A stretch of 64,000 bases of DNA from NCBI GenBank assembly GCA_963704885.1, contig CAVPIB010000004.1, positions 1,072,793-1,136,792 of the forward strand, written 5' to 3'. The stretch comes from an uncultured Actinomycetes bacterium. Its GTDB lineage: Bacteria; Actinomycetota; UBA4738; HRBIN12. The notes beneath the pieces are model-generated. The model saw nothing but the letters and a program-made list of their open reading frames with translations. It was not told the origin of the DNA and did no database searches. Positions within the stretch are counted from its first letter, which is position 1. Each line of letters begins with the position of its first letter. Positions 50,076 through 64,000 of this stretch are shown piece by piece. Made by a program: the position numbers and the translations under genes.

Positions 50076-50393
50076 TCAACAGTCGGTGACCGCTCGGAGC
50101 GCTTCGCAGACCTCGTGGGCGCGGCCGGGTCCGAGCGCACCCAGGCGTCTTGTGAACGCTGATTTCGGCACCGTCTCGATGTTGTCGAACGAGGCGACGC
50201 TTGACGCGGGCAGGCCTTCGTCGGCGCCGAGGACAACCTCTGTGGGGATGCCTCGGACCGTCCGGGTGATCGGTGCTGCGACGACGCGGCGGAGGACCGG
50301 GATCGCCTGATCGCGCGTCAGCACCAGATAGGGCCTCGGGGTCCTGTCGGGGATCTCAGTCCACCAGATCTCGCGGCGGGCTGGCTCAGGCAT
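50076..50393 (-). CDS. mazF: PemK/MazF-family toxin
   Basis: REIWW...RPYLVLTR, APITRTVRGIPTEV, SFDNIETV. Confidence 0.88.
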   Translation of the reverse strand: MPEPARREIWWTEIPDRTPRPYLVLTRDQAIPVLRRVVAAPITRTVRGIPTEVVLGADEGLPASSVASFDNIETVPKSAFTRRLGALGPGRAHEVCEALRAVTDC

Positions 50394-50631
50394 CGCTGGA
50401 GCCTGGTGCCGGGAATCCGCCGAGATCCTCGTCGAGGTCGTCGGATTGCGGCAGGAGTCTGTAGCCCTCGACGATGGCCTGCCCCACCTGCCTCCGACGC
50501 TCCTCGTCGACCAGATGCTCGATGCCGGCTCTGACCGCCTCAGCACGAGTCTCGAAGCGGCCGCCCTCTACGAGCTGGTCGATCTGATCGAGCAACGGGG
50601 CTGGCAGTCGAACAGCGATCTGAGGCGACAT
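50386..50631 (-). CDS. Ribbon-helix-helix antitoxin
   Basis: QIAVRLP..LLDQIDQLV..GRFETRAEAVR; TATGCT -10 6 nt upstream (leaderless). Confidence 0.85.
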   Translation of the reverse strand: MSPQIAVRLPAPLLDQIDQLVEGGRFETRAEAVRAGIEHLVDEERRRQVGQAIVEGYRLLPQSDDLDEDLGGFPAPGSSDA

Positions 50632-50698
50632 GCGTTCAGCATACCGACTTGGGACACGCACGGGACCCCCCGCGGGATCGAGGTAAAGGGGTCTTCAG

Positions 50699-50720
50699 AC
50701 CCTACCCTGCGGGTCCGACA
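50699..50720 (-). promoter_or_regulatory. RecA-NDp (PafBC-type) promoter
   Basis: TGTCGG-ACCCGCAGGG-TAGGGT facing RHH-MazF pair 1. Confidence 0.7.
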
Positions 50721-50724
50721 CGGA

Positions 50725-51072
50725 TCAGGCGTCGGCCGGTGGCGTGGGAGGCGGAGGCGTGGAGCCTCCCTTCGAGCGGATCGCCTCGGTGGCCTCGTTC
50801 ACCGTTGCGGTGATGGCATCCCCAAGCGCGCTGACGGCTTCGGTCAGATCCTTCTTCGCCTGGTCGTCCTTGAACGTCGCGCCCACCGCAGACACGCCCT
50901 TGGATAGCTCGTCGAACAGCTCCTTCATAGCGCGCTTCAGCTCGCGATCGGCCTCGTCGGCGTCGGTCCTACCCGTGGATCCCGCCTCGTGGTAGCGATC
51001 GGCGACCCCGCGTCCGAACGACGAAAACTTCTCGCCCACCTCGCCCCAAGCCTGCTTCGCACTCTCGGTCAT
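50725..51072 (-). CDS. Hypothetical helical protein
   Basis: AGGAGG RBS before ATG 51072; amphipathic helices, Pro-rich tail. Confidence 0.72.
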   Translation of the reverse strand: MTESAKQAWGEVGEKFSSFGRGVADRYHEAGSTGRTDADEADRELKRAMKELFDELSKGVSAVGATFKDDQAKKDLTEAVSALGDAITATVNEATEAIRSKGGSTPPPPTPPADA

Positions 51073-51149
51073 GTGGACCTCCTGATGCCGTGGCACCTCA
51101 ACCCTAGCGCGCGGATCCAACATCGATCCCAGAGCAGTCGGTTGCGATG

Positions 51150-51542
51150 CTAGCCGTTGTGAAGGACCAGATCGGGGGCGGCACGCTGGATGCGAACGAA
51201 GTCCGCGTCGCGCGTCCACAGCTCCGCTTCAGCGCGTAATGCTGCGACCGCGATCGCCACATCGAGCAGGGGGACGGAAGCTCCGAGCCGCCTGAGCGCG
51301 TGTCCAAGTTCTCCGATCTCGCGCCACGCCACCTGGTCCAGGTCGATCCAGGGGAGGCTCCCAACGGCCAGCCAAAGCTCATCCCGATCCTCGGGCATCG
51401 TCCCCACCAGCAGCTCTGCCATGATCGGACCGCATACGAGGACGGACTCCCCATCGAGGTAGCCATCCAACCCGTCAACCAGCGACACGTCTGACCCGTT
51501 CAGATAGTCCACCCAGATCGACGTGTCGGGGAGGATGTTCAC
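51150..51542 (-). CDS. vapC: PIN-domain toxin
   Basis: PDTSIWVDYL, AELLVG, LDVAIAVAA, LWTRDADF. Confidence 0.9.
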   Translation of the reverse strand: MNILPDTSIWVDYLNGSDVSLVDGLDGYLDGESVLVCGPIMAELLVGTMPEDRDELWLAVGSLPWIDLDQVAWREIGELGHALRRLGASVPLLDVAIAVAALRAEAELWTRDADFVRIQRAAPDLVLHNG

Positions 51543-51742
51543 GTCCGCCGATCCACGGATCGCAACTCGGCCGAGGCGTCCTCGATCTGGATCCGACCGC
51601 GGAGTGCCTTGGTCCGCGCCGCCGCATCCTTCGACAGGTACTCCGAGATCGCTCGCTCTACAGCCTCCCGCTTGGTCACTCCTGGATGTCTCGCCAGGAG
51701 TGCCCTGAGCAGGTCGTCGTCGATGTCCAAGGTCGTTCTCAT
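51539..51742 (-). CDS. vapB: VapB-type antitoxin
   Basis: MRTTLDIDDDLL...TKREAVERAI; stop overlaps vapC start. Confidence 0.88.
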   Translation of the reverse strand: MRTTLDIDDDLLRALLARHPGVTKREAVERAISEYLSKDAAARTKALRGRIQIEDASAELRSVDRRT

Positions 51743-51793
51743 GGCATCATGATGACATAGCAGCTCAGGCACGGTCCAGTCCTCCGAAACGGG

Positions 51794-51815
51794 ACCATGC
51801 TCCGCGGTACTGACA
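51794..51815 (-). promoter_or_regulatory. RecA-NDp-like promoter (variant -10)
   Basis: TGTCAG-TACCGCGGAG-CATGGT facing the vapBC pair. Confidence 0.45.
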
Positions 51816-51827
51816 GTCTGTGCTCCC

Positions 51828-51856
51828 TTGTCAGGCAGACGAGCTGTGGCTACGGT
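51828..51856 (+). promoter_or_regulatory. Sigma70-type promoter
   Basis: TTGTCA-N17-TACGGT upstream of the beta-propeller lipoprotein. Confidence 0.55.
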
Positions 51857-51887
51857 CGAACGCGATGCGTGGACGCGGTTGCCTCCG

Positions 51888-53138
51888 GTGAGGGCTGGTC
51901 CCCGCTCCCTCGCGTTGGTCGCGGCCTCCCTACTCCTCGCCGCCGGGTGTACCGGAGGGCTCTGGGAAACCCCGCCGGAACCAGGCACGGAACAGCCGTC
52001 GGAACGCCCCTCCCCCTCCACCCAGCCAGCGGGCGTGCCCGGCGCGACCGGTCGGATCGCAGCGCTGGACGAGGACGGGAACCTCATCGCGTTCGATCCC
52101 GACGGATCGGATCCGGTCCTACTCGACGGATCCGTGCCGGGTGAGACCCTCGTTAGGCAGCCCACGTGGTCGCCCGACGGCGGGCGCGTCGCTTGGGTCC
52201 GGCTCGCCGCCGAAGGGACGTCCGCCGAGGTCGCGACGGCAGCGGCGGACGGGACGCGGCCGACCGAGACCCCCGTCGCCGCCGCACCCTTCTACCTCTC
52301 GTGGGATCCGACGTCCTCCCGGGTCGCCTACCTCGGTGGCTCGGCGAAGGCCGACATCGAGCTCGGCATCGTGGACGTGGAGACCGGCAGCGAGGCGGTC
52401 CCCATCGACGCCGGCAGCCCCTTCTACTTCTCTTGGAACCCGTCGGGGCAGCAGATGCTGGTGCACGTGGGTACGGATCGACTCGACCGGTTGGCGATCG
52501 ACGGCACGCTCACCACCGTCGACGATCGGCCGGGGATATTCAACGTCCCGGTGTGGACCTCGAACGGACGGACCTTCGTCTACGCAACGCAGACCGCAAC
52601 CGGGCAGCGGTTGGTCGCGTACGACCCCGACGCGGGTCGGGGTGAGGCCCTGGTGCGGTTCGACGGCGCCATCACGTTCGTGGTGAGTCCCGACGGGAGA
52701 CGCGTCGCCTTCCAGGTGACCCAGGATGGGAACCTGGTGGTTCCGCTATCGGTGCTCGATCGTCGGACCGGCGCGATCGAACGCGTGGGGACCCAGGGCG
52801 CCGTGGCCTTCTTCTGGAGCCCCTCGGGCAACAAGCTCCTGTCCCTGCTCCCGGAGCGGGACCCGGATCGCTTCCTGTTCCGCTGGGGCGTCTGGGAGGA
52901 CGGGTCGTCGTTCACAACCGATCGCTTCGTGCCGAGCGTCGAGTTCAGCCGCGAGTACCTCCAGTTCTTCGAGCAATACGCGCAGAGCATGAGCCTGTGG
53001 TCCCCCGATAGCAGTGCGTTCGTGTACGCCGGATCGAGCGAGTCGGGCGAGACGGGCGTCTGGATCCAGCCGGCCACCACGGGCACCGCGCCCGTCCTGG
53101 TGGCCGACGGAGTGTTCGCGACATGGTCGCCGGCATGA
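51888..53138 (+). CDS. TolB-like beta-propeller lipoprotein
   Basis: LAAGC lipobox; repeated WSPDG/WDPTS/WNPSG/SPDG/WSPSG motifs. Confidence 0.85.
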   Translation: MRAGPRSLALVAASLLLAAGCTGGLWETPPEPGTEQPSERPSPSTQPAGVPGATGRIAALDEDGNLIAFDPDGSDPVLLDGSVPGETLVRQPTWSPDGGRVAWVRLAAEGTSAEVATAAADGTRPTETPVAAAPFYLSWDPTSSRVAYLGGSAKADIELGIVDVETGSEAVPIDAGSPFYFSWNPSGQQMLVHVGTDRLDRLAIDGTLTTVDDRPGIFNVPVWTSNGRTFVYATQTATGQRLVAYDPDAGRGEALVRFDGAITFVVSPDGRRVAFQVTQDGNLVVPLSVLDRRTGAIERVGTQGAVAFFWSPSGNKLLSLLPERDPDRFLFRWGVWEDGSSFTTDRFVPSVEFSREYLQFFEQYAQSMSLWSPDSSAFVYAGSSESGETGVWIQPATTGTAPVLVADGVFATWSPA

Positions 53139-53170
53139 CACGAGCGGACGACCCGCGGCCGGTACGCGCC

Positions 53171-53671
53171 CTAGCCGCGCTCGGTCTGTTCGAGGATCCG
53201 TCTGAGCACCGGGAGGACGAGCCGGTCCTTCTCGCGGCCGGCGGCCTCCTTCGAACGGATCACGTCGGCGAGCGACGCCACATCCACCTCGGCACCGAGG
53301 ATCGTCAGGTGAACGGCGTCTCGCGATACGTCGGCGTAACCTGCGGTCCCGCTCGGCTCGAACGTGATGTCGAGCCGTCCGTGATCGGTGACGAGGTTCC
53401 ATGTGCGTGCGGCGGCGAGCGACGCCGCGTCGTGATCGAACGCGAGCCCAGCCGGTTCCGCGTCGGTCCACACCTTGGCGCGAAGCTCGTCGAGCGCCGC
53501 TGAGAGCCGTCGGAGGTTGTCGACGGCAGGATCGGGCACCACGTCGACGTCGGTCGTGAGGTACGGCGAGCCATGGATCACCCCGGCGAACCCGCCGATC
53601 AAGACGTAGCGCACGCCGTAGCGCGCCAGGACCTGGAGCAGCTTCTCGGGGCGGAACTCATCCTCGGACAT
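53171..53671 (-). CDS. Nucleotidyltransferase-fold protein (putative toxin)
   Basis: LIGGFA..HG...TTDVD, GRLD, LADVIRSKEAAGREKD. Confidence 0.8.
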   Translation of the reverse strand: MSEDEFRPEKLLQVLARYGVRYVLIGGFAGVIHGSPYLTTDVDVVPDPAVDNLRRLSAALDELRAKVWTDAEPAGLAFDHDAASLAAARTWNLVTDHGRLDITFEPSGTAGYADVSRDAVHLTILGAEVDVASLADVIRSKEAAGREKDRLVLPVLRRILEQTERG

Positions 53672-53981
53672 CGGCCATAGCCTCACGCCCGGCTCGTGCG
53701 AACCGGAGCGCTGCCTGATGGCGGCGGACACGATCGTCGGGTCCGACCGTCAGGTTCGTGGACGCCACGGACCAGTCGGAGTCGTCGGCCCCGAGCAACT
53801 GCGGCACCAGCTCCATCCCGCATGCGCGCACGGCCTCGTCGACCCGCCTGTACGACGGCTCGGTGCCGCCACGTTCCAAGCGAGCGATCGCGGACTGCGT
53901 CGTGCCCAGGCGCTCGGCCAGCTCGACCTGGGTGAGCCCGGCACGGCGGCGGGCCTCCCTGATGAGGTCTCCGGCTTTCAT
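53658..53981 (-). CDS. XRE-family HTH protein (putative antitoxin)
   Basis: REARRRAGLTQVELAERLGTTQSAIARLERG; TATATT -10 6 nt upstream; palindrome ATAGC-N6-GCTAT at 53991-54006. Confidence 0.88.
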   Translation of the reverse strand: MKAGDLIREARRRAGLTQVELAERLGTTQSAIARLERGGTEPSYRRVDEAVRACGMELVPQLLGADDSDWSVASTNLTVGPDDRVRRHQAALRFARAGREAMADVRG

Positions 53982-54095
53982 GGTTGTAATATAGCAGATA
54001 CGCTATGACAGGTGGTCAGGAGTCGGCGCTGGAGTGATCCAGAACGCTGCATCACCGAATTGCAGAGATACGGTCATGTCTGTAACCTGTGATAC

Positions 54096-54359
54096 ATGAG
54101 TGATGACGTGGCGCAGCTCTCGAGCCGAGGGACCGTGACCCTGCCCGCCGGCCTCCGGCGGGAACTCGGTCTGTCGGAGGGCGACGTGCTCACCGTGCGG
54201 ATCGTGAACGGCGCGATCGTGCTGACCCCCGCCGTCCTCACCGAGGTGGAGGCCTACACGGACGAGCGGATCCGGGAGTTCGAGGACTCCGCGAAGATGA
54301 ACGAGGACGAGCTCCGGGCGGCGCGCCGTGCGTGGCGCGTCACGCACCCGAGCACGTGA
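54096..54359 (+). CDS. AbrB/MazE-type antitoxin
   Basis: SSRGTVTLPAGLRRELGLSEGD...IVLTP. Confidence 0.9.
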   Translation: MSDDVAQLSSRGTVTLPAGLRRELGLSEGDVLTVRIVNGAIVLTPAVLTEVEAYTDERIREFEDSAKMNEDELRAARRAWRVTHPST

Positions 54360-54790
54360 CGGCTGCGCCCCTCGTCTTCCTGGACGCGAACGTACTGTTC
54401 TCGGCGGCCGTCGGCGGCGAGGCGTTCGGTCTGCTGTTCGAGCTCGCGCGTCGGGACAAGGTCCGGTTCGTGACCAGTCGCGTGTGCGAGCTGGAAGCCC
54501 GGAGGAACCTCGAGCGGAAGCGCCCCGAACGGGCGCAGGCCCTCACCAGCATCCTTCGCGCCGCTCCCCCCGCGGACGTGGACCCATCCGAACACCTCGC
54601 CTGGGCGCGGGCTCTGGTGGGCGATGCCGACGCCCACGTCCTGGCCGCGGCGCGGAGCCTCGCTTGCGTCGCGCTCGTGACAGGCGACCTGACGCACTTC
54701 GGTCCCCTGATGGAACGAGGGGATCTGCCGCTCACGATCCGAACGCCGCGCGCGTTCCTGATGGAAGGACCGCCGGGGTCGGCCAGCTGA
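54356..54790 (+). CDS. vapC: PIN-domain toxin
   Basis: FLDANVLFSA, EARRNL, DAHVLAAA, LVTGD..HF; GTG 54356 overlaps antitoxin stop. Confidence 0.88.
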   Translation: MTAAPLVFLDANVLFSAAVGGEAFGLLFELARRDKVRFVTSRVCELEARRNLERKRPERAQALTSILRAAPPADVDPSEHLAWARALVGDADAHVLAAARSLACVALVTGDLTHFGPLMERGDLPLTIRTPRAFLMEGPPGSAS

Positions 54791-54857
54791 CGTCGGGAGC
54801 GGCCGAACGGGCCCGAGTGCTAACGTCCCGTGCATGGACGGAGCGGTGCCCGCCCGT

Positions 54858-55088
54858 ATGGAGGAAGGGGTGGCCCGGACCTACCGGGCCGACCGGATCG
54901 AGGTCACGTGGGCTCCCCGGCTCTGCATCCACGCGGGCGAGTGTTTCGGCAACGCGCCTGAGGTCTTCGATCCGCGCGCTCGCCCGTGGGTCCGGCCCGA
55001 GGCCGCGCATCCCGACCTGATCGAGGAGACGGTTCTGCTCTGCCCGAGCGGCGCCCTGGGGTTCCGCCGCCTCGACGGCTCAGGTTAG
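54858..55088 (+). CDS. Divergent 4Fe-4S mono-cluster protein (YjdI-like)
   Basis: CIHAGEC...PEVFDPRARPWV...CPSGAL. Confidence 0.85.
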   Translation: MEEGVARTYRADRIEVTWAPRLCIHAGECFGNAPEVFDPRARPWVRPEAAHPDLIEETVLLCPSGALGFRRLDGSG

Positions 55089-55405
55089 GCGCGGATACCG
55101 AGCGCGTACCGGAGGGCCCCGTCGAGCGAGACCAGCTCGAGCGGCGTGAGGCGGCCGATCGGCCGGGTGCCGAGCAGCGCCTTCGGGATGGTCTGGAGAG
55201 TGTCGCAGTTCGCGACCGACGCGGCGCGCAACCCGTGGGGACGGCCGAGCGGCAACTCGCTCGGGATGCGCCGGATGGTCCTGGTCACCGGGGCGACCGT
55301 GATCGTCGTACGCACGCCGAGGACGGCTGAACGCGTCACCACGACGACGGGCCGGCGACCGACGGGTTGGGGGAGCCGCGCCCAGTAGACCTCACCCCGG
55401 CGCAC
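55085..55405 (-). CDS. mazF: PemK/MazF-family toxin
   Basis: RGEVYW...GRRPVVVVTR, APVTRTIR, ANCDTLQTIPK. Confidence 0.9.
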   Translation of the reverse strand: MRRGEVYWARLPQPVGRRPVVVVTRSAVLGVRTTITVAPVTRTIRRIPSELPLGRPHGLRAASVANCDTLQTIPKALLGTRPIGRLTPLELVSLDGALRYALGIRA

Positions 55406-55408
55406 GGC

Positions 55409-55648
55409 TCAGGCGTCCGGCCAGGCAGCGACCCGCGCGAACGCCTCGACCTCTGCGGGGTCCTCCGGTACCTCTAGATACGCGCGGATCGTGCGCGCGT
55501 CCCATGCAGCCTCGCGCCCGGCGTCGAGATAAGCACCCAGGGCCTCACGGATCAGCTCGCTGCGGTTCCGCTCGAGCGCATCGGCTGCGGAATCGAGTCG
55601 CGCGATCAGCTCGTCATCGAGCTGCACCAGGACCTGCCGCCGGGCCAT
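55409..55648 (-). CDS. Ribbon-helix-helix (CopG-like) antitoxin
   Basis: QVLVQLDDELIARLD...NRSELIREAL. Confidence 0.88.
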   Translation of the reverse strand: MARRQVLVQLDDELIARLDSAADALERNRSELIREALGAYLDAGREAAWDARTIRAYLEVPEDPAEVEAFARVAAWPDA

Positions 55649-55660
55649 CGGGAGAACCCT

Positions 55661-55682
55661 ACCATATGAGATAACATATGGT
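55661..55682. promoter_or_regulatory. Palindromic operator of RHH-MazF pair 2
   Basis: ACCATATG-AGATAA-CATATGGT adjoining minus-strand -10 TAGGGT (55656-55661). Confidence 0.72.
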
Positions 55683-55792
55683 CGGCCCAGCCGCCGTGAT
55701 CATCGTCACGCTGGCGGCTCGTCCAGCGACCGTGTGGCGGTGTCGGTAGCGAAGGAAGCGCTCTGCGGGATCCGCTGACCTGCCACGCGTGC

Positions 55793-55814
55793 ACGTTAGC
55801 GGGAACCACTGACA
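55793..55814 (-). promoter_or_regulatory. RecA-NDp (PafBC-type) promoter
   Basis: TGTCAGTG-GTTCCCGC-TAACGT, matching tTGTCRgtg-N8-TAnnnT. Confidence 0.72.
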
Positions 55815-55827
55815 GACCGGGTCGGGG

Positions 55828-56538
55828 TCAGGTCTCGCACCCGATGCCGGTGTGGTCGCCGTCGAAGTTGTGGGGGTCGGGCGGCAGGACCTGGAAGTGC
55901 CGGAACGAGATGTCCGCGCAATCCAGATCGGGCGGCGGAGGAGGGATGCACACGCCCGGATACGCGGGATCGCACCGATGTCCGCCGCCGCCCACACCCG
56001 GGCACGCGCCCCACAGCCCACGATCGTGCTCGCGCGCGACCCGCTGCGCGGCGGTGAACACGTCCACGTAACGGACGTTCGGCGGGTACGTGTCGACCAC
56101 GGCGTAACCGCCCGCCACCAGCCGCCGGTTGAACAGGTGCCCTCGCAACCAGACGTAGGCGAGCGTCCGCCCGTACCGGTCGAGCCGCTCCACGTCGAAC
56201 TCCAGCCGCACGGTGCGACCGGTGAGCGCACGCTCGGTGAAGCGCGACGCCTGCTCGCCGTAGCACTGGACGGGCTGCGAGGGGTCGACGGTCTCGGGCG
56301 TGTCGATGCCGATCAGCCGCACGTCCAGGTCGTTCCCACGGAACGTCACATGGATCGTGTCCCCGTCGACGGTCCGGGTGACGACCGCCGGTTCGCCCGG
56401 CGTGCGGAGGCCACCACTACCGTCGGAGGCCGCGGAGGACTCAGGCGCCGTGGGCGTGCCCGCCGGTCCCGACCGCCCAGACGAGCACCCCGCCAACAAC
56501 AGGACCAGTGCGACGACCAACGACCGTCGGGCGTTCAT
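55828..56538 (-). CDS. Thermonuclease (SNase) lipoprotein with Cys-rich Excalibur-like tail
   Basis: LAGC lipobox; VDGDTI, VRLIGIDTPE, DRYGRTLAYV, GLWG; tail CDPAYPGVCIP..DLDC...FDGDHTGIGCE. Confidence 0.92.
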   Translation of the reverse strand: MNARRSLVVALVLLLAGCSSGRSGPAGTPTAPESSAASDGSGGLRTPGEPAVVTRTVDGDTIHVTFRGNDLDVRLIGIDTPETVDPSQPVQCYGEQASRFTERALTGRTVRLEFDVERLDRYGRTLAYVWLRGHLFNRRLVAGGYAVVDTYPPNVRYVDVFTAAQRVAREHDRGLWGACPGVGGGGHRCDPAYPGVCIPPPPPDLDCADISFRHFQVLPPDPHNFDGDHTGIGCET

Positions 56539-56677
56539 GCCGGCGCAGGTGCCTCCGTCGGCGCCTCCGTCGGCTCCTGGCCGGCTCCTGGGCCGGCTCC
56601 TCCACGGGCAGCGTCTCGGGCACGGGGACATCGACCGGCTCGATCTCGCGGACGCGCTTGGGCTTACCGATGTTCAT
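56535..56677 (-). CDS. Small acidic Pro/Glu-rich peptide (~47 aa; probable one-base deletion near 56580)
   Basis: AAGGAGG RBS; MNIGKPKRVREIEPVDVPVPETLPVEEPAQEPA; restoring one C gives QEPTEAPTEAPAPA* with TGA overlapping the thermonuclease ATG. Confidence 0.65.
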
Positions 56678-57602
56678 GAGGTGCTCCTCCTTCTTCTACG
56701 GGGATCGACCACGGGTTCGCCGCATGCGCCCAACGATGGACGGACGACGTGTCTCGGTACGGGAGATCGTCACTCGGAGGAACGACGATCGGCGTCACTG
56801 CGACCGGTGACGCTACGGCGACGGACGGCGTCGCAGCGTCGGCCGGGCCGAACCCGAGCGCCTTCGTGACCAGGCTGAACGCGCCAACGACGAGCGCCAG
56901 GGCGAGGAGGATGAGCCCCGAGTAGGCCCAGATGAGGAACAACCCGCCGACGACCACCTTCACGAGTGACCAGACGCCGAGCGCCACCATCCTCAGGAGC
57001 TCCGCCGGATCCGACCTCATCGGTGCCGGACCGGTACGCATGCTGCGGTCGATCCGCTCGATGGGCATCAGGTCGACGCCGTAGGTGGAGAGCAGCTCCG
57101 ACTGCACCTGGTCGGCAGGCCACGAGGACCCCGCGATGCCACCTCTGTGCCGCGCGCAGACGGCCGTAAACGCACCCCCGCTGTCGATAACGCTCGTCGG
57201 ATCGACCGCGCCCTCGGCCATGTACAGGCACTGACCGCATACCAGCCGCAGGCGCGCCGGATAAGCCAACCGCGACCGGGCGCCGCGTTGGTGCTCCACG
57301 ACGGTTCCCCACATCGCGATCGCGCCGACCACGCACGTGCCAACGCCGAGGATGCCCGAGCGCGCCAGGTCCTTGGGCGTCGCTGCCGCGTAGAGCCCGC
57401 ACATGCATCCCCGGCTCGGGACCGTGCTCTCGTGGTGCAACGCACATGTCGCCTTCATGGCCTCCCCCGGAGGCCAGCCGTCGGGCCTGGTCAGCGAGAG
57501 GAGCGTGAGTACGCCGCCGATCCGCTGCAGACGCCAGGCGCGCCAGCCGAGCACCGGCTCCAGCGAGAGCGGTGGATCGGCGGGCTGGGGGGAAGTCGCC
57601 AT
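56664..57602 (-). CDS. Uncharacterised Cys/His-rich protein with C-terminal membrane segment
   Basis: GAGG RBS; GWRAW, C..HH..P..CMCGLYA, VVGAIAMWGTVVEHQRGARS, CGQC, CARH, then a long hydrophobic stretch. Confidence 0.75.
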   Translation of the reverse strand: MATSPQPADPPLSLEPVLGWRAWRLQRIGGVLTLLSLTRPDGWPPGEAMKATCALHHESTVPSRGCMCGLYAAATPKDLARSGILGVGTCVVGAIAMWGTVVEHQRGARSRLAYPARLRLVCGQCLYMAEGAVDPTSVIDSGGAFTAVCARHRGGIAGSSWPADQVQSELLSTYGVDLMPIERIDRSMRTGPAPMRSDPAELLRMVALGVWSLVKVVVGGLFLIWAYSGLILLALALVVGAFSLVTKALGFGPADAATPSVAVASPVAVTPIVVPPSDDLPYRDTSSVHRWAHAANPWSIPVEEGGAPHEHR

Positions 57603-57622
57603 GGGTACCTCTTCGGCGGGGG

Positions 57623-58379
57623 TCAGGGGAAGCGCACGAGCGCGGCTCCGTAGCGAGCGGACGGCAGGTCGGCGCCCGCACGCGTCAGGTACGCCTGCCA
57701 GAAGCGCTCGATCGTGAGGAAGCGGTCGGCGGGCAGTGACGAGCTCGCGAGCGCCCCCGCGCCAACCACGTAGACCGACACGCCCAGCAGGTTCGGGAAT
57801 CAGGCCCTCGGCAGCGAGCGTGTCGAGGGTCGGCCCGATCGCGGCGTCGTCGAAGTGCGCTCGCGCCACGTTCAGCCGGGGCGAGCGCTCGACCATGTCG
57901 GACAGGAGCACCAGGGAGCGAGCGCCCGCCTCCGGGTAGGAGTCGAACACGCGCTCGGCGAGCCCGAGCCCGTTGTGGATGTCGGTCCCGGATGCGGTCG
58001 GTTCCTGCGCCAGGATCGCGCGCGCCTGGGCGTCAACACGTTGACGCGTCCGCGTGATCCCCGCGTCGCACACGAGCTTGTTGTCGGTGAACGCGTCGCA
58101 CGCAGCGAACGTCGCGTCGATCGGATACGTCGAGTGGGCGAGCGGGTCGTCGTCGATCACGTCGCCGACGATGGTGCCGTGCTCAGCGACCACATGGTCA
58201 AGGACACGCTCGAACGCAGCGAGGTAGCGCGCACGCACGGCCGGGTCGTTCGTGCTCCGGGACACGTCGAAGAGCACGACCACGAGCGGGCCGGGCTGCC
58301 CACTACCGGTCACCGCGCGTACGGCCGAGCACCCGGTCAGCGCCAACAGGCACAAGAGCACCGCCAAGGAGCGCCTCAT
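57623..58379 (-). CDS. Lipoprotein with VWA/MIDAS-like domain (extra base near 57796)
   Basis: LTGC lipobox; VVVLFDVSRS (DxSxS), GTDI, LVLLSDM; corrected frame ends IERFWQAYL...LVRFP*. Confidence 0.75.
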
Positions 58380-59479
58380 GCGACGTGCACCGCCTTCAGC
58401 GCCGGCTCTGCGAGCTCCTCCGGCACGGCGATCACCGGCAGCTCGCGCAGCACCGCCGGGATCTCGGGTAGCCGCCGCGCGCGCAGGTTCGCCGCGCAGT
58501 ACACCGACATCTGCCCTCGGTAGTAGGCGACCAGCCCGGCGGTTCGGGCGCGTGCCACGCGGAGCAGCTCGTCGCGCGCGACGTCCGCGTTCCCTAGCGC
58601 CTCCTCGTGCCGGTGGACGGCACGCGTCGCCTCGGTCAATCGCCGCTTGGCGTCGGACAGCTCCATCCGCGCGGCCTGCGTCGGGCTCACCGGATCCGCC
58701 GCCTTCCGCGCGGCCGGACGCGGTGCGTGCGCCAGGTAGGAGAGCATCGTCGTGCCCGTGTAGATCAGCAGGTTGATCACCAGGAACACCAGGCTGCCAA
58801 CGACCGGCCCGAGCACGTTCAGCCCGGTGACCGCGGCCTCCATCGACAGGTAGCGCGCGCGGATCAACGCGATCCCCACGAGCGCCAGCACCGGCACCGC
58901 GATCAGGATCCAGATGAACCGCCGCTCGGCCATCGTCGGCTGCTCCAGCCGCAGGAACGTGCCCAGGCCGTGCGCGCACACCACGAGCATCACCGCCAGG
59001 CCCGCGGTCATCACCCACGTGAGGACCTCCGCCTCGCCGAACAACCTGAACGCGATCGCGTTCAGCGGGAACTCGGCGAGCAGGATCGCGACGATCGCCG
59101 CTACGTAAACGCGCGTCGAGATCCGCGCGCCGGCAGGCGTCGGCGGCGCGAGCACTAGTTCCTCGCGATGCGCGTCCAGCGCGCGCCGCCGGTCCTGCGC
59201 CTCGGTGACGTCGACGTTGGCGTTCCGCACATCCTCCTCGGAGGTGCGCAAGCCATACGTGTCGGCGCCGGAGCGTTCGCGCAGACGCGCGTCCTCACCG
59301 GCCCACCATCGGATCAGCTCGGCGACGGCCTCGTCGGCCCGCTGCGCGATCGCCATCAACGCCGGCGGGTGCGCGACCTCGTTCGTGGTCGGGATGCCGA
59401 GCTGACCGTCGCGCTTGCCGTCACGGCGAGCCCGCACGCGGTCGCGGAGCCGGCCGAACGCACCAGGGGGAACCTGCAT
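58376..59479 (-). CDS. Uncharacterised membrane protein: coiled coil / 4 TM / coiled coil
   Basis: GGAGG RBS; four central hydrophobic segments flanked by charged helices; C-terminal YCAANLRAR; stop overlaps next ATG. Confidence 0.8.
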   Translation of the reverse strand: MQVPPGAFGRLRDRVRARRDGKRDGQLGIPTTNEVAHPPALMAIAQRADEAVAELIRWWAGEDARLRERSGADTYGLRTSEEDVRNANVDVTEAQDRRRALDAHREELVLAPPTPAGARISTRVYVAAIVAILLAEFPLNAIAFRLFGEAEVLTWVMTAGLAVMLVVCAHGLGTFLRLEQPTMAERRFIWILIAVPVLALVGIALIRARYLSMEAAVTGLNVLGPVVGSLVFLVINLLIYTGTTMLSYLAHAPRPAARKAADPVSPTQAARMELSDAKRRLTEATRAVHRHEEALGNADVARDELLRVARARTAGLVAYYRGQMSVYCAANLRARRLPEIPAVLRELPVIAVPEELAEPALKAVHVA

Positions 59480-59498
59480 AGGGGGAGCCTCCAGTTCC

Positions 59499-59547
59499 GA
59501 GGACGTCCCTCCGCCGGACGACCGGCGGAGCAGGGGGTGACGTCCTC
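59499..59547 (-). other. Long stem-loop in the 5' leader of the five-gene operon
   Basis: GAGGACGTC(59499-507)/GACGTCCTC(59539-547) enclosing CTCCGCCGG-ACGA-CCGGCGGAG. Confidence 0.65.
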
Positions 59548-59556
59548 TCTGAAGTC

Positions 59557-59578
59557 AAGGTACGCAAGGGCTCTGACA
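59557..59578 (-). promoter_or_regulatory. RecA-NDp (PafBC-type) promoter of the five-gene operon
   Basis: TGTCAG-AGCCCTTGCG-TACCTT. Confidence 0.72.
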
Positions 59579-59593
59579 CGAACGGGTGTTCGA
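59578..59593. promoter_or_regulatory. LexA SOS box (actinobacterial consensus)
   Basis: ACGAAC-GGGT-GTTCGA versus consensus TCGAAC-N4-GTTCGA. Confidence 0.72.
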
Positions 59594-59785
59594 GCCCGTT
59601 CGGTACCTGTCTTCACATGGCCGCGCGTTGTGATACCTGGCGGCCGAGAAGTATCACGAGGTGTCTAGAAGCGATCCAGCCACCGGAGCACACGGGCCAA
59701 CTGGCTCCTCGTCATGAGCGTGCGCGCCGCGCCGAACCGAACCCTTAGGGCGCTCCATGGCTCTCTCTCCATCAGGCTTCCGAAG

Positions 59786-60079
59786 TCACGGACCGGGTCG
59801 ACTCCCGGCGATCGAGAGCTCTTCACCGATGGCGAGGGCGAAGCGCTCGACGGTCGAGATGCGCGGATCGCTCTCACCACCTTCGAGGCGGGCCAGGGCG
59901 GACTGCGAGGTCCCCATCCGCGCAGCAACCACGGTTTGGCTGAGTCCGCGCTCGCCACGCCGTCTCGCAAGCTCTTTGATCAGAGCGCGGGCTCGGGTCG
60001 CAGCCTCGACCATGACCGGGAACTCGGGGTTCGCTCGGGTCCGCTCCTCGACAACCTCGTCCAACAGGTCCTTCGTCAT
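59786..60079 (-). CDS. XRE-HTH antitoxin (HigA-like)
   Basis: GLSQTVVAARMGTSQSALARLEGG..PRISTVER; GGAGG RBS. Confidence 0.88.
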   Translation of the reverse strand: MTKDLLDEVVEERTRANPEFPVMVEAATRARALIKELARRRGERGLSQTVVAARMGTSQSALARLEGGESDPRISTVERFALAIGEELSIAGSRPGP

Positions 60080-60125
60080 GTCCAGCACCTCCAGGATGGC
60101 ACTCTCTCATAGCGCATAAGAGATA

Positions 60126-60491
60126 TCAAGTTCGAGATACCGACCGGGACCTCCAGTCGCGCAGGCGCCGCTCAGCGAGTTGGATCGTCCGAGGCGGAGT
60201 CTTCTGCGACGTCTTCGCGAAGGCCTCGAGCGCCAACAAGATCTGGGCGCGACGACCCTCGGTTGCGAACAGGACTCGATAGGCGGCGCCATCGCCAACC
60301 ACCCTCACCTCGTAGATGTCGCCGTGCAGATGGCGAGCTCCCGACAGCCCTTCGACAGCAACTTCGCGCATCGCTACGACCACGGCTGCGGCGTCAGCGT
60401 CCGACAGCGTGCGGATGAAGTCCCGCACCGGACGATGGCCCGCACGCGTCGTGTAGTCGCGCCATCGCCGCCAGGTCGGGAGGTTGCTCAC
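60126..60491 (-). CDS. RelE/ParE-family toxin (HigB/Gp49-like)
   Basis: YTTRAGHRPVRDF, HLHGDIYEVRV, YRVLF, FAKTSQKTP; toxin lies upstream of HTH antitoxin. Confidence 0.88.
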   Translation of the reverse strand: MSNLPTWRRWRDYTTRAGHRPVRDFIRTLSDADAAAVVVAMREVAVEGLSGARHLHGDIYEVRVVGDGAAYRVLFATEGRRAQILLALEAFAKTSQKTPPRTIQLAERRLRDWRSRSVSRT

Positions 60492-60591
60492 GTGGCCTTC
60501 TTCTCATGAACCGGGGCGATCGTCTGTGAGCTTGGTCATGCTTGGTGTTTCTCACGGTCGCCGTTCGACGTGGACAGATGATTTCTGAGCG

Positions 60592-62285
60592 TCAAGGGTC
60601 GAGAGATCCGATAGGGGCGATCGATCGCGAGTTGCCATCGAGCCAGTCGCGGATCGCGAGCGTGGCCTCGACGTCGCCTCGGTTGTACGTGAGGAGCCAG
60701 TCCCGAGCCGCCAGACGCTCGGCCTCTGAGGACGACGAGCCGGCCGCGACCTCGTAGAGGAGCATCGACTCCTCGCCACCGGGATCGTCGACCTCCCAGG
60801 TGTATCCCGCGAGCGGAGCCACCACCTTCAGGCCGCTCCCTCCGCCGGTGATCAGCTGGCTGTCGAAGACGCGCAACATGTCGACCCAATCATCCGAGAC
60901 GATGAACGCCTCCACTTGGTCGAGCACCTCTCCCGTGATGCCCAGCTTGCGGAGGTACGTGTTCTCCGCCGCCGCGTTGTAGCAGTACGCGCGGAACGTC
61001 TGGCCGGCCGCGTGCGCTCCCGCGCGGATCGCCATCAACCAGTTCCAGAACTCCAGGAAGTTCGACGTCTGGACCTCGGGACCCAGCGGATCCCACGTCA
61101 CGAACGGCCGGTAGCGCCCGATCGGCGCAGGCATCGCCGATCGGTCGGTGAGGAGCGCTCCCCACAGGTACACGCCATCTTCGACGTTCTCCATGTCGAC
61201 ATCCACCTCGATGTCGCCCCTGGGGACCACGATCGCGCCGACCCCACGCCGCCGGTAGACGGGATCGGGTCCGAGCGCGGCTCGCGCCTGATCGATCTGC
61301 TCGGGGAGCGAAGACATCCCGGAGTCCGATGCGGTGCGGAGGTCGAGCGCGGCGAGCGCCGCGCGGTCGGTCACGCCGTGATCGTGGTGGATCTTCCACT
61401 CGCGCCAACCGATCCGAGGGAGCAGGCTGACGTCACCCGAGCCTGCTTCGAGCTGCGGGCGGCAGTGGTCCCACCACGGACACTCGGCACACTCCGCAAG
61501 CTTCACCGGCACGACGAGCAGCTCCACCCCCGGGTCGACCAGGTGCTGTTGCGCGACCGCGATGATGTCGAGTCGGAAGTCGAACTCGAAGTCGTAGACC
61601 TCCATCGTCGTCCGCATCTTCTGGGTGCCGGACGAAGACGGGGTCCGCCACATCGGCGCATCGAGGTCGTGCCACACGATCCGGCGCTCGACGCCGATGA
61701 TCCCGCCATGTCGGCCATCACCCGCGGCGACGCCGGCCGCCTCCAACATGCGCTGGTAGTGCGCGAGCTGGAGAAGGTCCCCTTTGTGCTTGCGCACGCG
61801 AGTGGTGTCGTCCGTCTCCGCGTCCTCGAACGCCGGCCGAGCGAGCTCCGAGCACGTGCTGCGGGAGACTCCGCGGCTCCGCTGGCTCGAGCGCCATATG
61901 GTGCTTGATGTCGACGGGTCGATATCCGCCACCGGGTGCAGCGACCAGGAGGTCCGGCTTGCCCACCCTCCTGCCGGTCGCGTCGCTCGGCAGCCGTCCA
62001 CCGAGGATCAGCGGGGATCCCGCCGCGATCGCCGCGGATGTCGCGACCTCGAGCGCGGCGGAGTCGGCGCCCTCCACGGTGATCGTGTCCGGATGCAGTT
62101 GGCGAAGGTCGGCGACGATCTCGGCCTCGAACAGACGCCCTCGCTCGGAATCGTCGTTCGAGGACAGGCGATGGAGAGATCGGCTCAGCAGGGCCGAGCG
62201 CGTCGTTCTGCGCGCGCACCGGACACTGCTTGGCGACGTAACCACCCTGGAGTGGCACGGACGAGATGTCGTATCGCGTCGTCAT
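60592..62285 (-). CDS. TM0106-family RecB-like nuclease with RNase H-like C-terminus (frameshifts near 62145 and 61855)
   Basis: GKPDLL..YRPVDIK, QLAHY, KQC + [31 protein letters not shown] across three frames. Confidence 0.8.
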
Positions 62286-62337
62286 TTGGCCCTCCGCGGG
62301 AAGACTACGGGAGCTGAGCGAGAGTACGCGCGCACGC

Positions 62338-62359
62338 TGTCGGGGCGGCAAGGTAGATT
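62338..62359 (+). promoter_or_regulatory. RecA-NDp (PafBC-type) promoter, leaderless, of the R-M gene
   Basis: TGTCGG-GGCGGCAAGG-TAGATT, 7 nt before ATG 62367. Confidence 0.75.
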
Positions 62360-62366
62360 CCGGGTC

Positions 62367-64000
62367 ATGCCTCCTTCGAGGACGTTCCTCGCCAATCGTG
62401 TTGGCGCGCGTCCCTGGAAGGTCCCGGATGGTGGGAGGGCCGCGTTCGAGCCGGAGGGTCTCTACCTCGGTAAGGGTGACAACGCTCTTCAGGTGGCGAT
62501 CGCGCAGTCGAAGTCGAAGCCGAACGTCCAGGACATCAGGAACCTGTGGGAGCGTCGGCAGAACAAGGGGGCCAGCCCACTCCTCCTTGTGGTCACCTAT
62601 CAGGGGCCAAGCGGTCCCCAGGCCATGGCGTGCGGACCGGCGGGCGAGCGGCCCCCGGTTACGCCAACGCTGGAACCCGGGCATCTTGAGCGGATCGCCG
62701 CCGCTGCTCTGGAGGAGCCCAATCGTCATGCCGCTATCCGCCTTCTGAACGTCGCTCTGCCCGATGCGCAATCCGATCTCCCAGGCATCCGGAACAACGG
62801 CATGTTTGCCTCCCACGAACTTCGTGCCGGGGTGCCGCTCAGGCAAGACTGGGCAGTAGCAACCGAGGCGTCCAAGCCGTTGCTGACGAAGCACGGCAAG
62901 CCGCTGGTCGAGAGTCTTGGCTACACCGTTGAGCCACGAGGAACGTCAGCGTCGCTCCTTCGTGCGGGCGAGACCGCGACTGCGATCGCAGTGTTCCTCG
63001 AAGAGAGCGAGACTCCAGAAGCTCCATCTCCGCGCTTCAACGGGCTCTCTCCGGTGTCTCAGGCGTTCGCCGAAGCGGACAAGGACCGATTGCCTTGGGT
63101 TGTGGTCACTCGCGGTCCTGAGATCCGGGTGTACTCGACCAACCCAGATGTCGGGGTCGGGCGCAAGGGGCGCTCGGAGACCTTCATCGGTATCAACTTC
63201 TCGCTCCTCCCGGATGACCGGGCCGGATACCTCTCGCTGCTCTTCGGCTCCGAAGGACTCCAACCGGGGGGTTCCTTCGAGCAGATCCTCGAACGCTCGA
63301 AAGACTTCTCTGCCGGGCTCGGAGAGCGACTTCGCGAGCGAGTGTATGTCGATGTCATCCCCGGACTGGCTGAGGCGATCGCCACGCGCTATGAGTTCGA
63401 TGAGACCGCCACCGATGCAGAGCTGGACTTCGTTTACCAAGCCTCTCTAGTCCTGCTCTTCCGCCTCCTCTTCATCGCCTATGCGGAGGACAAGGGTGTA
63501 TTGCCCTACCAACGCAACGGGATGTACGACCACCGGGCGCTGAAGACCCTTGCGCGGGAGTTCGCGCATCGAATCAACGAGGGCACCAAGGAGTTCGACG
63601 AGGAAGCCACAGACCTGTGGCAGCAGGTCAGGTCGCTCTTCAACGCGGTGAACGAGGGCAACTCGGACTGGGGGGTGCCTCCGTACGACGGAGGACTCTT
63701 CTCAAACGACCAGGTTGTTGAGGAGTCAGGCTACGAACTGGACAGCATCGAGCCGCTCACCAACGCGGAGCTTGGACCTGCCCTGTCAGCGTTGCTGGTC
63801 GATAAGGGTGACGACGGCGTTCTCGGCCCGGTCGATTTCCGCAGCCTCTCCGTCCGCGAGTTCGGCACGATCTACGAGGGTCTCCTCGAGTCCAACCTGT
63901 CGATGGCCGTGACCGATCTGACCCTCGACAGGAGCGGGACCTATGTGCCCGCCAAGAAGGAGCAGGCGGTTCACGTAGAGAAAGGCACCGTCTATCTGCA
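62367..64000 (+). CDS. Type IIG-like restriction-modification enzyme, N-terminal part (runs off window; absent from ORF track)
   Basis: Open frame [11 protein letters not shown]...; [50 protein letters not shown], motifs that normally precede the N6-adenine MTase domain. Confidence 0.82.

Follow-up and report, generated by a model that had tools for sequence, protein, structure and literature searches.

Candidate PafBC-dependent promoters upstream of toxin–antitoxin, restriction and nuclease genes in an uncultured actinomycete

Does the DNA damage response of an uncultured actinomycete extend to its toxin–antitoxin (TA) and restriction genes? The question is raised by a 64,000 nt stretch of DNA—hereafter, the window—from a bacterium of the lineage HRBIN12 (GenBank assembly GCA_963704885.1; 3.0 Mb, 67% GC). 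The window consists of the last 64 kb of the 1.14-Mb contig CAVPIB010000004.1 (C4 in the coordinates below). An earlier, sequence-only reading of the window proposed that repeated copies of a promoter motif, TGTCRG-N10-TANNNT, wire an island of toxin and restriction genes into one regulon under the damage-responsive activator PafBC. We conclude that the four exact copies of the motif are probably genuine PafBC-dependent hybrid promoters, in which a -26 element (TGTCRG) is combined with a -10 element (TANNNT), and no -35 element is present. The four sites differ in the evidence behind them, and the region that carries them is not a single regulon.

The motif and its cognate regulator

The window contains four matches to TGTCRG-N10-TANNNT: site 1 (50699–50720, minus strand), site 3 (55793–55814, minus), site 4 (59557–59578, minus) and site 5 (62338–62359, plus). 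These are the four sites listed by the sequence-only reading, and a pattern scan finds none elsewhere in the window, including its first 49 kb. The accompanying estimate that few matches would arise by chance is borne out by shuffling: 0.09 matches are expected in the window, and none of 100 shuffles contains four or more. A variant with a CANNNT -10 element, also part of the original proposal, does exist at 51794–51815 (minus); the statistics do not support it by themselves, since the window contains four such variants where ~0.9 are expected, and three of these lie outside the cluster. All five sites are intergenic and are oriented, as had been described, into the genes downstream: two MazF pairs, a VapBC pair, a multi-gene operon and a restriction–modification (R-M) gene. 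Relaxing the -26 element to NGTCRG, TGTCNG, TGTCRN or TGTCNN reveals no extra sites in the cluster; the loosest form, NGTCNN, adds a single one (GGTCCT at 51147, minus), which we judge not credible. The possibility that the sites are copies of a repeat was rejected: their flanks are unrelated, with an ungapped identity of 15–33%. No Rfam match was found in positions 44–64 kb of the window.

The motif was then scanned for in the whole genome. With a spacer of 10 nt there are 31 matches, versus 1–8 for each spacer of 4–9 and 11–17 nt. Sixteen of the 31 are mostly non-coding (0–4 at each other spacer), in a genome of which ~90% is coding and ~10% non-coding according to a crude codon-usage gene caller; coding DNA is thus not as rich in the motif as non-coding DNA. 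The non-coding background at other spacers amounts to ~1.4 matches per 290 kb, which translates to ~0.01 expected in the intergenic DNA of the region under study. The genes behind the matches include recA (as the sequence-only reading would lead one to expect), uvrA, uvrB, dnaN, a DUF6504/DnaE2 cassette, an AdnB-like helicase-nuclease and the proteasomal ATPase gene mpa, together with a LysM protein gene next to lexA, comM, UPF0102 and rmuC. These downstream genes are the canonical PafBC damage regulon. In 14 of the 31 matches a start codon follows the -10 element by 6–10 nt, the geometry of a leaderless mRNA; among these are recA (7 nt), uvrA, uvrB, the AdnB-like helicase gene, comM and the type IIG restriction gene behind site 5. 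Five relatives contain 22–32 motif matches each, and the reversed pattern, used as a control, gives 0–5.

Could all four window matches nonetheless be fortuitous? High-GC genomes contain many partial matches, and ~4–5 of the 31 genome matches are themselves expected by chance (a match inside rpsD is evidently one of them). Yet no shuffle of the window yields four, all four sites are intergenic and correctly oriented, and sites 4 and 1 are conserved in other genomes; we regard coincidence as an explanation for all four sites as barely credible.

The regulator that would act on these sites is present. A tandem pafB and pafC pair is located at C4:239452–241381, on the same contig as the window, and these are the sole WYL genes found in the genome. 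PafB has WYL and WCX domains, and PafC has HTH_PafC, WYL and WCX domains. The host PafB matches the Mycobacterium smegmatis PafB chain (AY) of RNA polymerase complex 7p5x at 1.2e-40, and retains arginines at the positions counted as R46 and R50; arginines of this type are described as reading the GTC triplet (PMC8635444). The motif itself equals the PafBC consensus reported from ChIP-seq in the same paper, tGTCgg(N10)tA(N3)T, and hence is of the RecA-NDp type, as originally assigned. Two of the observations that the sequence-only reading had named as refuting it, the lack of a PafBC homologue and an equal frequency of the motif in coding DNA, are accordingly not made. According to the published accounts, PafBC is activated by single-stranded DNA (ssDNA) and adapts RNA polymerase-SigA to promoters with a -26 element and a -10 element (PMC8635444, PMC11804915).

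An alternative is that the sites are recognized by some factor other than PafBC, such as a regulator specific to this region or an alternative sigma factor. Nothing speaks directly for this, beyond the fact that the region encodes several DNA-binding antitoxins of the HTH, RHH and AbrB types; these have distinct operator-like repeats of their own. In this genome, recA and the classical damage genes have the very same 22-nt motif in front of them, the motif coincides with the PafBC ChIP-seq consensus as given in PMC8635444, and the search for WYL genes yielded pafB and pafC alone, neither of them in the region. Recognition by another factor is thus very improbable.

If, as we think probable, PafBC acts at the four sites, the following sequence of events would be expected from the mycobacterial literature. 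DNA damage would generate ssDNA, activating the PafB/PafC heterodimer. The heterodimer would insert between region 4 of sigma-A and the -26 element ("sigma adaptation"), upon which transcription would start. The switch controlling recA, uvrA/B, dnaE2 and mpa would in this way also raise four units of the window: (i) a nuclease operon, at which an abutting LexA box would add repression, (ii) the horizontally acquired type IIG gene, which would be transcribed as a leaderless mRNA, and (iii and iv) two MazEF pairs, where the PafBC-type site would in each case provide a second promoter upstream of the pair's own leaderless one. The VapBC site, with its CATGGT -10 element, would be at best a weakened member of the set. 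Observed here are the motif with its spacing-specific enrichment and geometry, the presence of the regulator and the conservation of two of the sites; what we infer from this scheme is induction by damage, with whatever follows from it for toxin activity or restriction. Among sequencing runs, no RNA run containing window positions 54000–63999 was found, and just four DNA runs share 5–7% of its sequence words.

A conserved operon behind site 4

Site 4 (TGTCAG-N10-TACCTT) is the best supported of the sites. It is situated 77 nt upstream of a gene encoding a 367-aa protein, the first of an operon on the minus strand. Thirteen loci homologous to this one were found in other genome records, with identities of 49–91% for the 367-aa protein. 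The exact motif is present in 11 of them; in the remaining two, either the spacer is N11 (locus L037) or the -26 element reads TGTCAC (locus L039).

A second regulatory element adjoins the first. The genome carries a LexA gene at C4:400567, and the palindrome CGAAC-N4-GTTCG, which we take to be the LexA (SOS) box of Actinomycetota, occurs in 12 non-coding copies (versus 0 with an N3 and 3 with an N5 spacer) and precedes recA, lexA and the dnaE2 cassette. One such box, at 59579–59592, directly abuts the -26 element of site 4. A perfect copy of the palindrome is found upstream of the 367-aa gene in 13/13 homologous loci as well as in the window; it abuts TGTCAG in the window and in 11 of the loci, and lies 21 nt farther upstream in the other two. 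Because the LexA box abuts the -26 element, the site 4 promoter is predicted to be under dual LexA/PafBC control, with LexA positioned over the place of PafBC.

The operon starts at 59479 with the gene for the 367-aa protein (58379–59479), which is of no known family. In an AlphaFold model (pLDDT 78), four predicted transmembrane helices are flanked by long helices at both termini. The protein has 148 homologues, all unnamed, and no family in Pfam, PADLOC or NCBIfam; a Foldseek search against the PDB returned coiled-coil matches alone (E ≥ 0.011) and no fold match, while the ESM Atlas returned unnamed actinobacterial clusters alone. The second gene (57623–58379) encodes a vWA-like lipoprotein with a lipobox and a DxSxS motif. 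It is frameshifted near 57783–57799 and reads through as an apparent 571-aa open reading frame (ORF), the change of frame being visible in tblastn searches with the proteins of relatives. A homologue in another metagenome-assembled genome (MAG; locus L032) gives VWA scores that are sub-threshold, under the Pfam cut-offs. The third gene (56667–57608), a separate gene in relatives, encodes a 314-aa Cys-rich protein with C-terminal transmembrane helices, for which no family was found (Pfam; Atlas scores of 0.82 are a lead only). The fourth (55831–56538) encodes a staphylococcal-nuclease-like (SNase) lipoprotein with a lipobox (Pfam SNase, 2.6e-24; PADLOC candidate SNc+LTD, 2.7e-39). To judge from the lipoboxes and the modelled helices, all four operon products seem to reside in the membrane or outside the cytoplasm. 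Conservation extends to the gene that follows the one for the 367-aa protein in 12/13 homologous loci; in relatives it corresponds to two genes (the vWA-like lipoprotein and the Cys-rich membrane protein). An SNase gene is nearby in 3/13. This conserved LexA/PafBC-controlled envelope-nuclease operon is the most original element of the case.

Two further observations concern the same operon. Firstly, the 5' leader of the 367-aa gene (59480–59556, minus), together with that of 11 homologous loci, contains a conserved hairpin (CTCCGCC...GGCGGAG) followed by GGAGG. RNAalifold predicts seven pairs, one with a compensatory change in 2/12 sequences, and the hairpin has no Rfam family. Secondly, the L032 locus mentioned above (L032:4903–9813) carries four exact copies of the motif in a span of 5 kb, all on the same strand. 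There, the 367-aa gene promoter is nearly duplicated before a displaced vWA-like gene, one motif forms the leaderless promoter of a 102-aa ORF without a family, a Fic/DOC gene lies in between, and a MazEF1-like pair comes after.

TA pairs and the restriction gene

The genome contains two PemK/MazF genes only; both are in this region, and each has a site. Both pairs are of the MazEF type, in that a small RHH antitoxin gene overlaps or abuts a PemK/MazF toxin gene (Pfam RHH_1 and PemK_toxin in each case). The first, MazEF1, comprises the antitoxin gene at 50389–50631 and the toxin gene at 50079–50393 (minus). Site 1 (TGTCGG-N10-TAGGGT) is 67 nt upstream of the antitoxin ATG at 50631. Nearer to the gene lies what appears to be the native leaderless promoter, with a -10 element (TATGCT, 50638–50643, minus) 6 nt before the ATG. 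This native element is kept in 7/7 orthologous loci, as GGTATGCT-N6-ATG or, in more distant loci, as TACGCT-N7-GTG. Among the same seven loci, site 1 is exact in relative G021 (at 66 nt, before a 60%-identical pair), has one mismatch in relative G003 (-10 element TAGCGC) and is absent from five. A wider set of 29 MazF1-like loci, from other genomes of the order, includes five with an exact motif at most 600 nt upstream; the off-spacer rate predicts ~0.01. In four of the five, from published genomes of three genera, the distance between motif and toxin gene equals that in the window; in the fifth, from an unpublished genome, it differs. The link between motif and MazEF1 is recurrent, yet found in a minority of loci.

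MazEF2 has a similar layout: an antitoxin gene at 55412–55648 and a toxin gene at 55088–55405 (minus), with a native leaderless promoter at 55656–55680. The latter consists of a TAGGGT -10 element (55656–55661) 7 nt before the ATG, and an operator-like inverted repeat, CATATG-N6-CATATG (55663–55680); both are kept in 5/5 orthologous loci. Site 3 (TGTCAG-N10-TAACGT) is 144 nt upstream of the antitoxin ATG, just past the SNase stop codon. Homology to relatives ends at ~55680–55713. The native promoters of both MazEF pairs are presumably controlled by their antitoxins. The suggestion that a damage promoter sits on top of TA autoregulation fits this anatomy, with the native leaderless promoters kept and the motif 67 or 144 nt farther upstream. 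An exact motif elsewhere in the genome (C1:642255, minus) precedes a HicB-like antitoxin gene by 123 nt, which brings the TA modules with a PafBC-type site to three.

Site 5 (TGTCGG-N10-TAGATT) is separated from the restriction gene's ATG by 7 nt, in the same leaderless geometry as at recA and uvrA. This spacing is the one indirect sign of a transcription start ~7 nt past the -10 element. The gene (62367–63998, plus) is cut by the contig end; its 544 aa appear to be the N-terminal part of a type IIG restriction enzyme-methyltransferase. The protein matches the PADLOC profile REase_MTase_IIG at 2e-95 over positions 30–548 of 1378, the remainder being beyond the contig end; it has no Pfam match, and the rest of the gene was not found elsewhere in the assembly. 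The start codon is supported by both the PADLOC profile and the homologues, which align from the first residues. The gene is strain-specific: it is absent from 59/60 relatives (the sole match being in an unpublished genome) and present in 14/400 other genomes of the phylum. Site 5 sits in a 78-nt gap between this gene and a divergent gene for a RecB-like nuclease of the TM0106 family. That gene is frameshifted at ~62130, with its N-terminal part starting near 62288 in another frame, and is either a pseudogene or the product of an assembly error. It has no motif; a RecB-like homologue in relative G021 (locus L089) has an exact motif ~500 nt upstream on the same strand (G021:C2:6951–6972).

The fifth unit, VapBC (VapB 51542–51742, PIN 51153–51542, minus; Pfam VapB_antitoxin and PIN), has the variant TGTCAG-N10-CATGGT at 51794–51815 (minus), 51 nt upstream of VapB. 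It departs from the PafBC consensus at the first base of the -10 element and, taken alone, is not above chance. It may be a decayed member of the site set, because the VapB orthologue of relative G002 has TGTCGA-N10-TAACGT, with an intact -10, at the equivalent place (-76 versus -73).

Several of these results weigh against the reading of all four exact sites as working PafBC promoters. At site 3, no counterpart was found in any of the five MazEF2 orthologous loci, and the site is 144 nt from the antitoxin start, at a junction unique to this genome. The site 5 motif is present in 0/11 loci homologous to the type IIG gene (two of these from the unpublished genome), and 24 of the 29 MazF1-like loci have no motif. 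The frameshifts of the vWA-like and RecB-like genes suggest that part of the cluster may be decaying, or that the assembly may contain errors. Finally, since toxin and antitoxin are co-transcribed, the net effect of co-induction on toxin activity is not predictable.

A narrower explanation is that only the conserved sites (site 4 and probably site 1) work, whereas the CATGGT variant and the matches at sites 3 and 5 are fortuitous, in sequences that are ordinary or silent; the clustering would then reflect a promoter-dense, fast-evolving TA region and not co-regulation. The missing counterparts of sites 3 and 5 and the chance-level frequency of the CA variant agree with it. In addition, several IIG homologue loci have a plain leaderless -10 element at the place of site 5, so that only a TGTCGG in register need be fortuitous there, and clusters of 2–3 sites within ~7 kb are common in relatives. 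Against it stand the ~0.01 matches expected in the intergenic DNA of the region from the off-spacer background, the occurrence of a site at both of the genome's two MazF operons, and the spacing of site 5, which is exactly that of recA, uvrA and uvrB. Moreover, four sites within 11.7 kb were reached in just 0.6% of 20,000 simulations in which 31 sites were placed uniformly. Sites 3 and 5 are improbable as chance matches, yet without comparative support; on balance, we consider the narrower explanation unlikely, and four functional PafBC-dependent promoters remain the probable account.

Regional make-up and relation to known systems

Between 49.3 kb and the end of the contig are encoded, in order, Phd-PIN, RHH-MazF (MazEF1), a 132-aa unknown protein, VapB-PIN, a PD40 propeller protein, an HTH protein with a 186-aa unknown protein, AbrB-PIN with a small ferredoxin-like protein, RHH-MazF (MazEF2), the SNase operon, an HTH/Gp49 (HigBA-like) pair, the TM0106-family RecB-like nuclease and the type IIG enzyme. 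Exact sites serve four of these ~11 transcription units, and the weak variant a fifth; the Phd-PIN, HTH-186aa, AbrB-PIN, HigBA-like, RecB-like and PD40 genes have no site. With 4–5 of ~11 units carrying a site, the proposal that the island is wired into one regulon was overstated.

Nor is the region an island in the usual sense. A mobile or defence island was rejected: there is no tRNA gene in the window, no integrase among the 22 proteins, and no deviation in GC content (0.62–0.71, like the surroundings). The one island-like property is variable, mosaic presence, with pieces of the region scattered and reshuffled in 40 relatives. The region is a mosaic TA-rich stretch rather than a delimited mobile island.

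Two other groups of motif matches in the genome may be recorded. One is a 5.6 kb stretch at C1:96300–101900 (locus L030), with ~58% GC (versus 67% for the genome), no long ORF and no Rfam match, that contains three exact motifs (C1:99553, 100417 and 101330). An 87-aa AAA_16/STAND NTPase fragment lies downstream of one of these, and PIN genes are found on both sides (C1:93514 and C1:102928); the stretch is possibly another accessory region that carries PafBC sites and is now in decay. The other is a pair of identical 22-nt motifs with similar flanks on two small contigs (C15:26250 and C17:16465), upstream of paralogous Pyr_redox genes and inside an ORF on the other strand. Here, the bin may contain a contig that is duplicated or that varies between strains.

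How far does the arrangement differ from what is known? The sequence-only reading had taken it to be undescribed. That needs qualification, as there are precedents in higB1-higA1, in M. smegmatis VapB and in DdaA; it does hold that no title or abstract in the literature searched, a scope that did not extend to full texts and regulon tables, mentions PafBC promoters on restriction genes or MazEF. The closest relative is the higB1-higA1-Rv1957 (TAC) operon of Mycobacterium tuberculosis, in which, by the published descriptions, promoter P1 carries a RecA-NDp motif and P2 is repressed by the antitoxin (PMC2897130, PMC3968373). As at both MazEF pairs, a TA operon there combines a LexA/RecA-independent damage promoter with an autoregulated one. 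The differences are that the toxin is HigB there and MazF here, and that the RecA-NDp promoter is proximal there but distal here, behind a leaderless native promoter. Further, two MazEF pairs, a restriction gene and a nuclease operon occur together in the present case, which is known from sequence alone.

With the PafBC regulon of M. smegmatis, the host shares the 22-nt consensus, the -26 and -10 elements without a -35, recA and repair genes as targets, the WYL PafB/PafC pair and the DNA-reading arginines; a review places an M. smegmatis VapB in that regulon (PMC8165232). Here, however, the host is outside the mycobacteria, and the predicted targets include a type IIG restriction-methylase gene and a secreted nuclease operon. 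DdaA, a WYL damage activator of Moraxellaceae, is reported to increase restriction after damage and also to activate CRISPR-Cas; in Acinetobacter, 27% of the R-M promoters contain the DdaA motif (PMC12392091). DdaA is likewise a global WYL damage activator with a motif in R-M promoters, but belongs to another phylum and regulator lineage and recognizes another motif; DdaA replaces the SOS response, whereas LexA and PafBC coexist here, and the DdaA work is experimental. BrxR and CapW are reported to be WYL ssDNA sensors tied to the control of defence genes as well. They are local repressors located beside their systems, unlike the distant global activator proposed here, whose WYL gene is absent from the cluster. 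According to a 2023 paper, no WYL factor had been described as regulating phage defence in Actinobacteria (PMC10693628); PMC12848934 cites a study from 2025 on PafBC and resistance to mycobacteriophages. The present case extends the known PafBC regulon to TA and restriction genes; it is not a new mechanism.

A bolder generalization can be put forward tentatively, as something possible that we ourselves rather doubt. PafBC might be more than a repair regulator, namely the ssDNA-sensing master switch behind an inducible programme of immunity or growth arrest in Actinomycetota, with accessory genes repeatedly capturing a -26 element before an existing -10 element, and the site 4 operon might be an unrecognized damage-induced envelope/extracellular-nuclease system. 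Capture of this kind would fit the type IIG gene, which has the full motif here and just a -10 element in homologues elsewhere, and the MazEF pairs, with a motif in 5/29 loci from several genera.

If the predicted promoters are functional, DNA damage or ssDNA from phages would induce the repair genes along with restriction, the secreted nuclease and the two MazEF modules, and the locus would provide a concrete, non-mycobacterial case of the PafBC regulon recruiting accessory genes. The uncharacterized four-gene envelope/nuclease operon, with its dual LexA/PafBC promoter conserved across 13 loci, is a clear candidate for a new damage-response function.

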